A stretch of DNA of 64,000 bases from NCBI GenBank assembly GCA_964016885.1, contig OZ024743.1:217124001-217188000 (forward strand), given 5' to 3'. A program made the position numbers and the translations under genes. Positions within the stretch are counted from its first letter, which is position 1. Every line of letters begins with the position of its first letter. The notes beneath the pieces were generated by a model. The model ran no database searches. It saw only the letters and a list, made by a program, of their open reading frames with translations, and was not told the origin of the DNA. This DNA comes from Eledone cirrhosa. Its lineage: Eukaryota. Below, in pieces: positions 4,731-63,340 of this stretch.

Positions 4731-5323
4731 TTAAATATAAGTTTGTATACGTACATACATATATGTGTACAGACGTACAGTAGTATGCATATATATACAT
4801 ACATGCACATATATATACATACATGCACATATATATATATATATGTACGTGTGGGTTTATCGAACATTTATTATAAATTAGGCTGACCAGCCTAATTTCG
4901 TTTCATTCTTTTCCATTTATCGTTTTCGGTACGTCCGGCCGACTAACTCATTCAATATGCAAATTAGGCTGCTCAGCCGTTAATGTGCATAAGGAAAGTA
5001 TATACTTTCAAACATTCAATCATCTGACAGAAAGGTATACGATGCTGACGATTGCTAATAAGCTTGAAACTATTACATCGTTCCTGTGTCAGTGTTGAAC
5101 AAAAGGGCGACGATGGTTGCCGAGCACTGTACGGCGTAACGAACATCATAATAAATGTTCGGTAAACCCATACGTACATATATATATATGTGTGCATGTA
5201 TGTATATATATGTACATACTAGTGTACGTCTGTACACATATATGTATGTACGTATACATACTTATAGTTAGGTATCAGCCGTACTAAGATTGAGAAATGA
5301 AATTTCGTTTCATTCTTTTCCAT
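4731..5323 (+). mobile_element. Non-coding bipolar hammerhead element, family A (retrozyme-like, 407-nt terminally redundant unit)
   Basis: Flanked by (TA)n. About 4735-4874 is an inverted copy of about 5148-5266. The 23-mer AATTTCGTTTCATTCTTTTCCAT occurs at 4894 and 5301. Homologous to 26467-27148. Confidence 0.75.
5039..5081 (+). ncRNA. Minimal type I hammerhead ribozyme (family A; helix III mutated)
   Basis: ACGATG CTGACGA ttgc-taataa-gctt GAAA CTAT TA CATCGT. Stem I ACGATG/CATCGT is perfect. Confidence 0.7.
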
Positions 5324-5604
5324 ATATATATATATTTATATATCTATATATTTATATATATTTATATATACATATATGGATAAATGTATATATATATATA
5401 TATATATATATATATATATGGATATATATATGGATATATATATATATATATATATATATATATATAAATATATATATATATATGTATATGTATATATATA
5501 TATATATATATATATATATATATGTATATGTATATGTATATATATATATATATATATATATATATATATATATATATATATATATATATATATATATGTG
5601 TGTG

Positions 5605-5668
5605 TGTGTGTTCTGTTATTAATTCTGGCAATATTACACACATATCACCCTCCCCAAGTATAACAATA
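5605..5668 (+). mobile_element. Solo PLE pLTR 3' end
   Basis: Inverted copy of 5694-5756, ending CCCCAAGTATAACAATA into (TA)n. Confidence 0.75.
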
Positions 5669-5900
5669 TATATATATATATATATATATATATATTGTTA
5701 TACTTGGGGAGGGTAATATTTGTGTAATATTGCCAGAATTAATAACAGAACACACTCACTGTTTGGTTGGTTTTTCGCTTCTCGCTTCTGTGTCTTTTAT
5801 ATCGGTAATCTAACTAACTCGGTCGTCAATGTTGCCATTGACTGACCGACGGTCAAAAATAATACAGATACAATATAGACACAAACACATCTATATATTT

Positions 5901-5942
5901 TATCAAATCTTTCGTTGCACATCTGCAACATCGTCAGTGGTG
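5901..5942 (-). ncRNA. Degenerate hammerhead in PLE pLTR
   Basis: CTGACGA t GTTGCA-gatg-TGCAAC GAAA. Core and stem II are intact, while stems I and III are eroded. Confidence 0.55.
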
Positions 5943-59400: not shown

Positions 59401-60139
59401 TCCTCATTGCCTTTCAGCTGCTCTTGCTACTAACCTCCTTTCTGCTTTCACTTGTTTTTTTTTTTCCTTCTTTCTTTTTACTATATTATTTTTTTGTCTT
59501 TTCTTTTTTCCTCTTTGTTTTTATCTCATACCTACTATTTCTTTCATTCCTTCATAATTTGTTTCGCTTTTTTTTTTAATTCTGTTTTACAAAACTTTTT
59601 TTCTCATTATTTTTCTTTCGGTAATTATTTATTTCTTACTGTCCAACTATTTGATTTTCTTTGTCTAACTCTTCTCTTGACCTACTTTCTTCATTTACTA
59701 GTTTTGTTTCACTTTTTTTTATTTTTCTCAATCTGAATTTTATATCTGTTTGTTTCCTTTTCTTCTTTTCAGTCTATCTTTCCTCCTTCTTTCCTCGAGT
59801 CTTTTTTCATATGTTTTTTTTTCTTTTTACGTTTTACAATTTTCTAAAAAAAAAAAAACTGTTCCTCCTACAAATGCTAAGACTTATCAAGTGATGTTTA
59901 ATCCAAGGAAATTGTGACTCAGCGATTTCGATTTCGATCCTCGGATTAGCGTTGGATATCCTGTCTGTAGGAAAGGTAATTTGAGTAGAATAATGCATTG
60001 ATGATAATTAGTAATTACAACGTGTCAAATGTCGATTTCCCCATCGACCTCTCCATAGTGGGATTTCGAATGTTATCTCATAACGACAGCTATCATAGAT
60101 AATACACTTATGTCATCAACGATGATAGTAGTGTATTAA

Positions 60140-60310
60140 AAACAGCAGTTTAAGGGAAGAGGAAAAAGATTACCCATTTCTGGATTGGTACTTTATTTAA
60201 CAAGGAGGACATGGAAATTTGACTTCAGCAGGATTTGAAATGAAGACATAAGGACGCGTAACTTAAAACTGCTTCGTATTTACACGATCTCCAACGATTT
60301 TGTCAATCAA
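60140..60310 (-). mobile_element. SINE family 2, decayed
   Basis: TTGGTACTTTATTT..TTGACTTCAGCAGGATTTGAA. Confidence 0.5.
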
Positions 60311-63128
60311 ATTACTTGTTTTACATTTAACTTTGTGACTGGTTATTTCCCAGTTGTTATGCATTCATCGTGAGTGTATTTGACGTGTATAACAATGTGA
60401 CAAACTTCTATACACTGCTGTTTAGTGATTTTTATATGTTCTCACATCTAGATGTTTCCATCCAACATTTATACTTGCTCCTTTATCGTCTTTTATGCTT
60501 GGCCTTATTTCATCTATATTCTGTTTCCTTCACATATCTATACTTTTGTTTCTTTGATTTGTGTTTTCTCTTCTTCTCTCCTGTTTTTCACATTTCTCTT
60601 TTTACTTATGACAATATTTCGTATTTTTATTATCTATTCCATTACCATTGTTGATGCTCTTGTTCGCTATTATTCTATGCAATTCTAAACTAATATTGAA
60701 TATATTTATTCCATCGTGTTCCTGTTGATTCTCTCGATATCAAATACATTAGCTTGACAATTTTTCTATGCATTAATCTGTGGCATCTGCTATTACATGA
60801 CTTATTTTGTAGATTTTCACAAATGTATACATCATATTAAATGGTAATGCATTTAGTTGCTCCCCTTGGTTACCTTGTTGTTTAATCCCTGATTCTTATT
60901 GGGGGAACATGCACATGGTGAACAGTTGGGTATCTCGCCTTTATAATATCTAAACCTACATTTTCAAATGAGGATAAGTATATAACTCAACGAGATTTAG
61001 CTGGTGTTTATTACTAAACTTATTTTGTAGTTATAATATTGAGTTTGACATTGGTATTGTTGCTTTTGTACGTTGCTTTTTAATTTTTAAACACTGCTAA
61101 GAAAGGATAGATCAGAGCAAACTTTTGGACAAATGCATTTCACACGTGCCATGCTTTTTTAGGTTCAATTGTATACTGAAGGACAACAAACAAACTTGTC
61201 TTTCCGTTTTAATATGAATGTGTGTAGTTTCTGAAAGATGTGGCAGACCTCTCCGCTGGATCAATTTACCTCCTGGATACATCATGATTGAATCGTAGTG
61301 TGTGCATTGAAGATAGTATTGAATTATGTTGATGATAGCATTAGAGATATTTAAGGTATTTTGTTCTTGTCACGATTGTAAATACTCAAGTTAGTGTAAC
61401 ATATATAATGTAGTGCGCATGAGAATAAAATCAACTCGAAATAATTGTGCATTTTTAGCGATTGATTTATATTATTTTAATTATTTACACAAATATGGAA
61501 GTCATATCCAGACACGTTTCTCTTTCATTATGATCTCAACTAAGGGAGAATTAACTAAAAAATATACAAATTTAGTTAACTTCAGAGAAACTTCTATTTC
61601 AGGCGTGATCCTCCTATTCTTCTAGCAGCCAGAGTGTAGGACCATATTATCCAACTTAATTTAATGATGCAGAGCTGGCGGCTGCTATATAGACGAAGTC
61701 ATATCGTTTGAGTGACTGCCGTAAATCTCTTCAAATTATTTGAATTATTATCGGCATTTGTGAGCCTAGAAATTGGTGGAAATGATGACGGTATTTGTTT
61801 GTTGTTGAGTTACCTACACGGACGAGTGATTAAATAGAGTTCATATGTTTCTTCAACCATACATTATCTGTTGTAGTATAATATGATGATTGTCAGTTTG
61901 GTATCATTTAAACCGAGGGCATATTGGCAGCGCTGTGTGTGACAATGTTCTTTACTTCTAATATATATATTACACAATTTTATTAGTATATTTTATTTAG
62001 TAGTAGTAGTTTCAAACTTGATGGTAGTGGCGTGGGAAATTGTAATGATGATGTGGCAGTTAATATATGTTGTTAGTAAATGCAATAGGAAAGAAAAGAA
62101 GTCGATCAGATGATCGAAACAAGGTAAGAATATTTGTATACGTCTTACAATCGCTGATACCAGCTTTTGGTCACAACTCGTAGAAGCGTCAACACGTTTT
62201 TTTTTAGGTAACGAATATTTTTCAGGTAAAGATTAGGAATGTGTACAGTAAATTATTATATCTGACTGTTTAAGGAATCCACCGCCACTTGATGAGTAAC
62301 TGTCTTATCTGTGTTCAAACCACACCGAGGCCAATATTTCGAAAGCAAATATTAGCCTTGGTGTGGCTTGAACACAGAGCTGAAATAAATACGTAGACAT
62401 TTAATCCGAGGTTCTAACGGTTCTACGAATTTGCCGATATTTATATTGTTAGATAATTGGTGAGACTAAGATTCACTAAAACATATTTTCAAGAAACTTT
62501 ATAAATGTATTGTAGATTCCGAAATTTATTGATCCAAGTATTTCAAATCGTTTTTGTCTGTTCTGTCATTATTTTGTCGCTGAAGAAAGTTAGAAATTCT
62601 ATCACTATTACCCAATGGGCTATTGATAAAGAATGTAGCAGCATTCTAGAAACGTAATCTATTGATTGTGTTTAGTCATGTTTTTTCTTATAAATTTCCA
62701 TTGAGAATCATGTTTCACTTCTATTGATTTTTTATTTGTCAAATATATTAGATTCATATGCAGACAAATGCTCTCCTATATATATATTTTTTAAACCAAA
62801 TCAATGTGTGTGAATATATATATATATATATACATATATATATATATGTATATATATATATATATATATATATATATATATATATATGTGTGTGTGTGTG
62901 TGTGTGTGTGTGTGCATATATTGATTTGGTTTAAAATTGTATTTATTTTAACTTCCATAATACTAATCCTTCAAGATTCTAAATTTATTAGTTTTACTTT
63001 AATTCCAACTGATTAATATCTACTTATGATATATATATATATATATATATATATATATATATATATATATATATATATATATATATATATATATATATAT
63101 ATATATATATATATATATATATATATAT

Positions 63129-63340
63129 ATTTAATGTATAATAAACAATACAATATACAATTCCCTTGTCTGACGAACGAATGTGGACGTTTCTTGTATT
63201 CGTCTTATTCGGGAAACCATTGGTAATGAGGTAATTATATTGTATTGTTTATTATAGATTAAATATTTAACCTGTAACTTACATATAGCACTCTTCATTC
63301 CTCTGACTTTTTCAATTTTCAACGGAAACTTCAATACCTA
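63129..63340 (+). mobile_element. Non-coding bipolar hammerhead element, family K
   Basis: ~32-bp inverted arms (63131-63162 and 63233-63262) enclosing a hammerhead, ~75-nt tail, TA flanks. Confidence 0.78.
63164..63231 (+). ncRNA. Type I hammerhead ribozyme (family K)
   Basis: CCTTGT CTGACGA aCGAAT-gtGGACG..CGTCTt-ATTCGg GAAA CC-att-GG TA ATGAGG. 6-bp stem I with two G-U pairs, GUA site. Confidence 0.8.

Follow-up and report, generated by a model that had tools for sequence, protein, structure and literature searches.

We analyzed a 64-kb window of the 3.0-Gb, TA-rich genome of Eledone cirrhosa (assembly GCA_964016885.1, contig OZ024743.1, positions 217,124,001 to 217,188,000), in which short palindromic inserts lie within (TA)n tracts alongside a coding Penelope-like element (PLE). 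The inserts represent seven families of PLEs and four families of repeats without an open reading frame (ORF), and we consider it likely, with a probability of about three in four, that all of them were produced by the reverse transcriptase (RT) and endonuclease of a PLE priming twice on one uncleaved RNA. One of the ORF-less families, K, is in addition predicted to carry a hammerhead core in non-circular S-G-C block order with a four-way junction. We refer to the families as A (4.7 and 26.5 kb), B (16.2 kb), C (16.9 kb), D (17.5 kb), E (19.0 kb), F (31.3 kb), G (42.3 kb), H (43.5 kb), I (63.1 kb), J (49.4 kb) and K (39.2 kb), and to the coding PLE as P; letters A to F are apparently those of the initial annotation of this window.

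Self-BLAST and direct reading confirmed the layout described in the initial annotation, in that all eleven inserts consist of head-to-head arms within (TA)n and exactly one arm is longer, by a tail of 40-126 nt (Table 1). The coding PLE has the same layout, and self-BLAST of the masked window found no mutual homology among the ten families, both as previously stated. The family J copy in the window lacks the inverted arm, which is present in 18 of 34 other J insertions. The density is higher than the one insert per 6 kb proposed earlier as a minimum, with 23 clusters covering 11,904 of the 64,000 bases, including 3 clusters from two further, candidate families.

Every family was high-copy in the genome, rather than single-copy, the outcome that had been named as damaging to the initial proposal. 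The first-look candidates numbered 2945 for A, 900 for B, 732 for C, 2427 for D, 1782 for E, 1742 for F, 3936 for G, 3002 for H, 1934 for I, 2948 for J and 2310 for K; these are not copy numbers, as 40 candidates were scored and 30 fetched per search, and the results below concern the best 30 loci per search (L-numbers denote fetched loci). Counts of single A arms were set aside, since a TA-rich stretch within the unit inflates them. Each family has two fixed 3′ ends. Tail ends adjoin (TA)4 in 260 of 292 copies, a count that leaves out 14 A and 24 H rows running on into the next unit, compared with 1090 of 9900 random places (11%). Among 123 inverted pairs encountered incidentally, 92 combined a tailed and a tail-less arm, 2 had two tail-less arms, 1 had two tailed arms and 28 had an unassigned end, so that one of each end was used in 92 of the 95 assignable pairs. 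The 169 query-selected pairs comprised 127 with one of each end, 4 with two tails and 38 with an unassigned end. In the ORF-less families, one of each end was found in 42 of 55 inverted insertions (1 two-tailed, 2 with two tail-less arms, 10 with an unassigned end).

Autonomous PLEs, six of them Hydra-type, account for seven families (B, C, D, E, F, G and I), which are their truncated ends. In all seven, as in P, an RT/GIY-YIG ORF is joined to the terminus and an inverted 5′-truncated arm is combined with a one-sided tail. For C, inverted arm, pseudo-long terminal repeat (pLTR), RT/GIY-YIG ORF, second pLTR and tail occur within one element (L031). The pLTR and tail of B continue without a TA tract straight into the beginning of the ORF (L387), D has RT and endonuclease directly upstream (L303, L304), with 9 of 30 loci showing the endonuclease at 315-380 nt upstream, and in E an inverted arm of 1.5 kb is accompanied by a truncated ORF and an untranslated region (UTR) of 1.9 kb (L310). 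F is joined to a PLE ORF in L307, L168 and L179, G in L317 and, as a related subfamily, in L318, and for I the endonuclease, the only part of the ORF seen, is continuous with the UTR in L306 and also in L305 and L320. Of the Hydra motifs, C has the complete set (RWK, DKT and a CxCX5C linker without CCHH), F has DKT and such a linker, B has DKT only, and E, G and I, which are truncated or broken, have only such a linker. These motifs fit a placement of the six families in the clade that Craig et al. describe as Hydra. P and D have a CCHH-type YIG region in which the strict CX2-5CxxC linker pattern, the feature that would decide the clade, is unmatched, and Pfam gave only a weak RVT_1 match for P (E 0.00019, below the cut-off). 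P and D may belong to the Neptune or Poseidon clade, names that are impressions rather than results. The initial annotation called the inserts non-coding, which is too strong because seven families are truncated autonomous PLEs that run into RT/GIY-YIG ORFs; the description holds for three families and J, and the anticipated mixture of PLE truncations and non-autonomous families is what we observed.

No ORF was found in the examined loci of A, H, J and K, which are built of head-to-tail units of 420, 657, ~485 and ~635 nt, respectively, and all of their common extensions run back into their own unit. Insertions spanning a unit junction accounted for 18 of 121 in A, 8 of 14 in H, 24 of 34 in J and 13 of 42 in K. 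A arrays fill 9-kb stretches, and arrays end at the same two sites as single insertions: one A array stops at the tail end, another opens with a tail-less inverted arm, and an H array stops at the tail-less site. The head-to-tail joint of A was present in contigs of all four public runs, two of them from other organisms at low depth; a public run search for the A unit listed no RNA run. A, H and J combine an ORF-less head-to-tail unit with a type I hammerhead, as do non-LTR (long terminal repeat) retrozymes, whereas only 1 of 30 K copies showed a type I fold, which was that of a neighbouring family.

We also observed that satellite-like arrays of H and A (L321, L322; L323-L326) have PLE-type ends at their borders. 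One of them, an H array of ~30 kb (L321, L322; C3 ~272.135-272.167 Mb), is a tail-less arm whose opposite arm measures only 1.1 kb.

It is unlikely, in our judgment, that A, H, J and K are likewise termini of autonomous PLEs, their units being pLTR tandems or locally amplified satellites rather than independently mobile RNAs. Seven of the ten families did resolve to PLE ends, B only after 60 loci and targeted fetches, and Li et al. (2026; 10.64898/2026.07.22.740005), in the parts covered, derive retrozymes from pLTRs and expect local amplification. However, the extensions of these four families loop back into their own units, dispersed junction-spanning insertions stop at the two PLE-type sites, and divergent K-like subfamilies likewise consist of partial tandems of ~515-530 nt with no ORF. 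In the four cases inspected, nearby same-strand ORF matches turned out to belong to separate, nested insertions.

The arms of one insertion resemble each other more than they resemble other copies, with a mutual difference of 0.9-6.3%, and share minor alleles in E (115/126), G (49/59) and B (56/91), compared with 0.14, 0.25 and 0.14 in shuffles. This sharing would also be expected if one cDNA folded back at a short palindrome, primed itself and stopped before the tail, as Arkhipova et al. (2013) proposed and as palindromic junctions are interpreted in the parts of PMC3846280 covered. In keeping with such fold-back, junction hot spots occur at short palindromes in C and B, and the inner ends of the two arms lie within 12 nt of each other in 50 of 86 incidental pairs. 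In the remaining pairs, however, the tail-less arm reached more than 12 nt further 5′ in 29 (more than 25 nt in 23 of these) and the tailed arm in 7, an asymmetry in both directions that simple fold-back copying cannot explain for all pairs. The 29 tail-less arms hold sequence absent from the tailed arm, while the tail is absent from the other arm; since each arm holds sequence that the other is missing, neither is a copy of the other. Both ends are, moreover, RT start sites in vitro, and we regard self-priming as quite unlikely to be the general explanation. The idea that the palindromes are DNA transposons resembling miniature inverted-repeat transposable elements and copied in one piece, or that long-read assembly produced them as fold-back artefacts, has in its favor the look of short inverted-repeat elements in TA and a nearly constant center in many C copies, but is highly improbable and already largely refuted by variable inner junctions between fixed outer ends (instead of fixed terminal repeats and fixed internal sequence), by the divergence between arms, by the ORF links of seven families, and by the presence in public-run contigs of one strand-change joint as well as the A joint.

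Two cDNAs started at two internal sites of an uncleaved RNA are favored by the combination of two fixed ends, one-of-each end use, allele sharing, and the finding that either arm may reach further 5′. The 5′ ends did not pile up at the hammerhead cut site in B (0/70), C (0/28), E (1/89) or G (5/124), which indicates that the template was uncut or religated; in B they gathered instead at the core's 5′ edge (37/70) and in G inside stem II (61/124). In the scheme that we propose, a GIY-YIG endonuclease would cut both strands of a (TA)n tract, the tract being observed as the flanks of each insert, and RT primed by each free 3′ end would begin at either of two fixed internal sites separated by 40-126 nt, with a different site used on each strand. 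While the two ends and the one-of-each rule are observed, the priming step is modeled on in vitro work with PAc, a Poseidon element of Anolis, and the assignment of one site to each strand is the step we infer. Both cDNAs would run 5′-ward through the uncut hammerhead, usually halting early and often at the edge of an RNA fold, and would then be joined by microhomology or end joining at the junctions whose positions we mapped. Long products retain the ORF, and short ones are the palindromes observed in the window. In A, H, J and K, where the unit past the tail enters its own start, the template would be a multimer or circle and the PLE enzyme would be borrowed in trans; the unit structure is observed, and the circle and its helper partner are our proposal. 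A, H and J would enter this cycle with type I hammerheads, and K with its predicted S-G-C hammerhead, as at a Naiad 3′ end.

The PAc study (Frangieh et al., 2024; PMC11167929) reports, in the parts covered, that a PLE protein acts in vitro on both strands of AT-rich DNA, cutting and extending each, that two internal RT start sites bound the tail, and that uncleaved RNA is the substrate, ribozyme cleavage being unneeded. PAc and the window families are therefore alike in having a tail between two internal start sites and an uncleaved RNA. They differ in that PAc showed no strand bias of the start site in vitro, whereas 92 of 95 genomic pairs here are one-of-each.

Several observations weigh against the proposed scheme. 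The in vitro start sites of PAc are alike on both strands, whereas the scheme needs one site per strand. Allele sharing is weak or untestable in A, C, D, F, H and J, and where present could reflect arm conversion or two RNAs of one source. Among 201 junctions, only 23% overlap by at least 4 nt, although 2.3% would be expected at random, and 45% contain extra or unaligned bases. B, E and G each have only one or two ORF-linked loci. For A, H, J and K, no helper was identified by sequence, a sensitive BLAST comparison with nine PLE UTR regions returned AT-rich noise only, and an ORF-bearing parent could lie beyond the best 30 loci per search. In a published test, furthermore, 8 of 9 predicted retrozyme dimers failed to cleave. 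Contigs over the C UTR contained no strand-change joint and were uninformative.

An ACUC...GAGU pairing motif recurs near the start of the Hydra-type tails (B, C, E, F, G). Around the tail-less site, likeness was notable in only two of 66 family pairs, H-J (z 4.6) and B-G (z 3.3), and was AT-rich. The tail motif or the H-J likeness could be a recognition signal.

Type I hammerhead folds were more frequent than in shuffled sequence, as the initial annotation had supposed. Strict descriptors gave 3-4 matches in the window (mean 0.01-0.09 in 100 shuffles) and a relaxed descriptor gave 8 (mean 0.75, maximum 3, in 60 shuffles), while 528,895 flank bases of the fetched loci, a sample biased towards repeat nests, gave 89 distinct matches versus 0-3 in 10 shuffles. 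Folds passed in 21 of 30 copies of A, 16 of B, 29 of C, none of D, 12 of E, 10 of F, none of G (which is truncated), 7 of H, 20 of I and 16 of J. The claim that six families and J hold foldable hammerheads therefore stood at the level of families but not of all window copies, as those of F at 31.3 kb (stem I), A at 4.7 kb (stem III) and J at 49.4 kb (split or mutated core) lack an intact fold. The H hammerhead sits in the part of the unit that is missing from the window copy, and long relatives of G carry the U3-A8 variant. In D, the core-like motif is CCGAAGA (U4 to C) in most copies listed, at ~17650-17690 (-) in the window, with a clean stem II, a palindromic stem III and a three-pair stem I, and no fold passed. 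None of these hammerheads was among the matches listed in four Rfam scans (for one of them, 150 of 299 matches), and weak Rfam matches to microRNAs and small nucleolar RNAs were rejected as below gathering. A further TA-flanked element at 52896-53480 has a type I core (53196 +) with an eight-pair stem III and a ~22-nt direct repeat at both ends, and may thus be a little longer than a single unit of what is probably an ORF-less family with units of 560-570 nt.

The 39.2-kb family had been taken to lack a ribozyme, which overlooked the predicted S-G-C hammerhead. CUGAUGA is present in 29 of 30 K copies tallied and CUGACGA in the other, with no downstream GAAA. An alignment of 14 K copies from divergent subfamilies showed the hammerhead blocks in the order S-G-C, namely a stem III strand, the cleavage triplet and a stem I strand, followed by GAAA and then by CUGAUGA. 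The resulting 33-pair pseudoknotted structure was paired in 97.0% of 461 cells, compared with 25-47% when slid, although its derivation from the same 14 rows favors it over the slid controls. Twelve pairs, four of them in stem I, changed on both sides, compared with 4.2 in shuffles, and none of 500 shuffles reached this value. An S-G-C descriptor matched 28 of 30 K copies and found 42 distinct matches in 1.495 Mb, 41 of them K-like by sequence, versus 0-1 in 10 shuffles. A reading of the motif as a C/D box or a kink-turn only was dropped, given that CUGA lies outside the terminal stem and all three hammerhead blocks pair correctly. At the same time, other features of K speak against a hammerhead: the 14 aligned rows are related, which makes the shuffle control lenient, changes in stem III are confined to one side, stem II has at most one direct (covarying) pair before the two separate helices of the four-way junction, and the window copy has a competing fold, the nested minimum-energy one, which is no better than shuffles (z -0.94). 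K-like 5′ ends showed no pile-up at the predicted cut (1/67).

Compared with the type-SGC hammerhead HRIMA-1 (PMC10085705, in the parts covered), K shares the S-G-C order, an intact CUGAnGA/GAAA/NUH core, crossing stems I and III, and a short linker joining stem I with the stem II side. It differs in residing in a high-copy animal repeat, in being predicted only, and in lacking a continuous stem II between blocks C and G, which in K has 0-1 pairs and opens into the four-way junction. Eckert et al. (2023; PMC10085705), as far as covered, found type-SGC hammerheads exclusively in metatranscriptomes, with no example from the genome of a known organism, and among the titles listed for type-SGC, and from 2023 on for non-circular permutation, there was no report from animals. 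A similar arrangement appears in a Naiad. In the supplement of Craig et al. (2021; PMC8557442), the entry before Naiad_Ovul (header not seen) has, as read by eye, a 3′ end with the K layout, comprising a five-pair stem III, a six-pair stem I, the UGA/AAUGAU internal loop of K, its hairpin loop and both junction helices, with differing sequence. Given this likeness of fold, a Naiad is the likely helper of K, though no Naiad ORF was recognized in the fetched loci with Hydra- and CCHH-type proteins as queries. The parts of Craig et al. covered flag eight Naiads as half-core, two of them cephalopod. The entry before Naiad_Hpol in the same supplement has, again by eye, a 3′ end in C-S-G block order with full stems I, II and III.

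On balance, we lean slightly towards a broader model, in which K and Naiads would carry a working non-circular four-way-junction hammerhead, supplying Naiads with the ribozyme presumed absent from them and giving a topology known from virus-like RNAs a cellular host, and in which several unrelated ORF-less ribozyme circles would hijack PLE enzymes by a two-site, one-site-per-strand rule that also seeds satellite arrays tens of kb long.

Much of the architecture described here has precedents. For endonuclease-containing PLEs, pLTRs, an inverted 5′-truncated copy, a one-sided tail and (TA)n targeting are described in the parts of Craig et al. (2021; PMC8557442) and Arkhipova et al. (2013; PMC3846280) covered, and non-autonomous PLEs have been published. 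The window families share with these elements and the Hydra clade the inverted arm, the tail at one end, TA targets, pLTR hammerheads, and DKT plus CxCX5C without CCHH. They differ from the PLEs described there in that Hydra-type tails measure 76-126 nt instead of 30-40 nt, in that most copies are cut to 100-500 nt, and in that one-of-each end use is quantified here. With the minimal PLE hammerheads of Cervera and de la Pena (2014; PMC4209133), who in the parts covered noted opposite-strand hammerhead pairs 100-700 bp apart, they have in common a palindromic stem III, an unpaired base after A9, the U3-A8 variant and opposite-strand pairs, while some families here differ in that stem II carries a 50-100-nt insert or stem III is closed. 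Animal non-LTR retrozymes (Cervera and de la Pena, 2020, PMC7229834; Li et al., 2026) are, like A, H and J, ORF-less type I tandem units that occur as monomers, dimers and long arrays alongside PLEs, and their mobilization by PLEs was proposed in these papers from co-occurrence and pLTR homology. The parts covered contain no insertion footprint, whereas a footprint is presented here, for genomic units of 420-657 nt.

Table 1. PLE-related inserts and ORF-less repeat units in the 64-kb window (family I is probably the K of the initial annotation)
Feature	Position	Strand	Arms and tail	Tail (nt)	Hammerhead and other features
Family A, 420-nt ORF-less unit	4731..5312	+	tail-less arm ~4731-4876 on -; tailed arm on +, ~1.05 units, spanning head-to-tail junction		compensatory stem I, mutated stem III
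Family B, Hydra-type PLE pLTR end	16204..16392	+		~79	two type I, cores 16253 - and 16262 +
Family C, 3′ end of very young Hydra-type PLE	16886..17422	+	tail 17324-17422	99	16984 - and 17225 +
Family D, 3′ end of CCHH-type PLE (YVDD RT)	17498..17909	-	tail 17498-17541	44	
Family E, 3′ end of Hydra-type PLE	19009..19309	+	tail 19221-19309	89	in tail-less arm only (19108 -)
Family A, second copy	26466..27142	-	tailed arm on -, tail 26466-26524; tail-less arm on +	59	intact type I in tail-less + arm, core 26903 +
Family F, 3′ end of Hydra-type PLE	31280..31709	+	tail 31584-31709	126	long stem II, in tail-less arm; stem I mutated
Family K, ~635-nt ORF-less unit	39206..39839	-	tailed arm 39206-39792 -, tail 39206-39245; tail-less arm 39793-39839 +	40	
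K, predicted non-circularly permuted S-G-C hammerhead, four-way junction	39256..39357	-			predicted core: CUGAUGA 39261-39267, GAAA 39291-39294, predicted cut between 39311 and 39310
Family G, 3′ end of Hydra-type PLE	42288..42452	+	tail 42373-42452	80	both arms truncated inside hammerhead
Family H, 657-nt ORF-less unit	43481..43905	-	tail 43481-43587	107	
Coding PLE P	43922..47558	+	tail-less inverted arm 43922-44266; tail 47499-47558	60	in inverted arm (44123 -); frameshifted RT/GIY-YIG ORF 44737-47089 with CCHH motif
Family J, ~485-nt ORF-less unit	49385..50123	-	1.5 units head-to-tail		
Family I, 3′ end of Hydra-type PLE	63131..63340	+	28-nt tail-less arm; tail 63265-63340	76	63170 +

Additional copies related to P lie at 5611-7180, 12538-12765 and 50276-50777, the first of which includes an inverted arm of its own (5696-5759), a piece of the ORF with 70% identity, and a tail. 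Another candidate family, abundant and TA-flanked, is present at 42985-43149 and 53653-53735, with 28 3′-end matches in the fetched loci, often palindromic elsewhere, and two more short palindromes occur at 59010-59042 and 62308-62378. A full-length U6 small nuclear RNA copy (54516-54624, 97.6 bits) is directly followed by a copy of a repeat resembling a short interspersed nuclear element (SINE), which is also found at 21842, 51117, 52678 and 54232; the U6 copy and the adjoining repeat together may represent a U6-SINE retrocopy. A 252-amino-acid open frame at 20056-20814 (-) had no Pfam match; it looks like a piece of a hAT transposase, which is an impression rather than a result.

Most of these findings are already known PLE biology, to which a quantified integration rule and one rewired ribozyme, the latter as predicted, would be added. 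ORF-less ribozyme repeats with a PLE-specific footprint provide more direct support for the mobilization of retrozymes by PLEs than co-occurrence or homology, and the one-site-per-strand rule, if correct, is a testable constraint on the unsolved mechanism of PLE integration. Finally, with the 102-nt RNA predicted at 39.3 kb, both the use of non-circularly permuted hammerheads by animals and the supposed lack of ribozymes in Naiads become directly testable.

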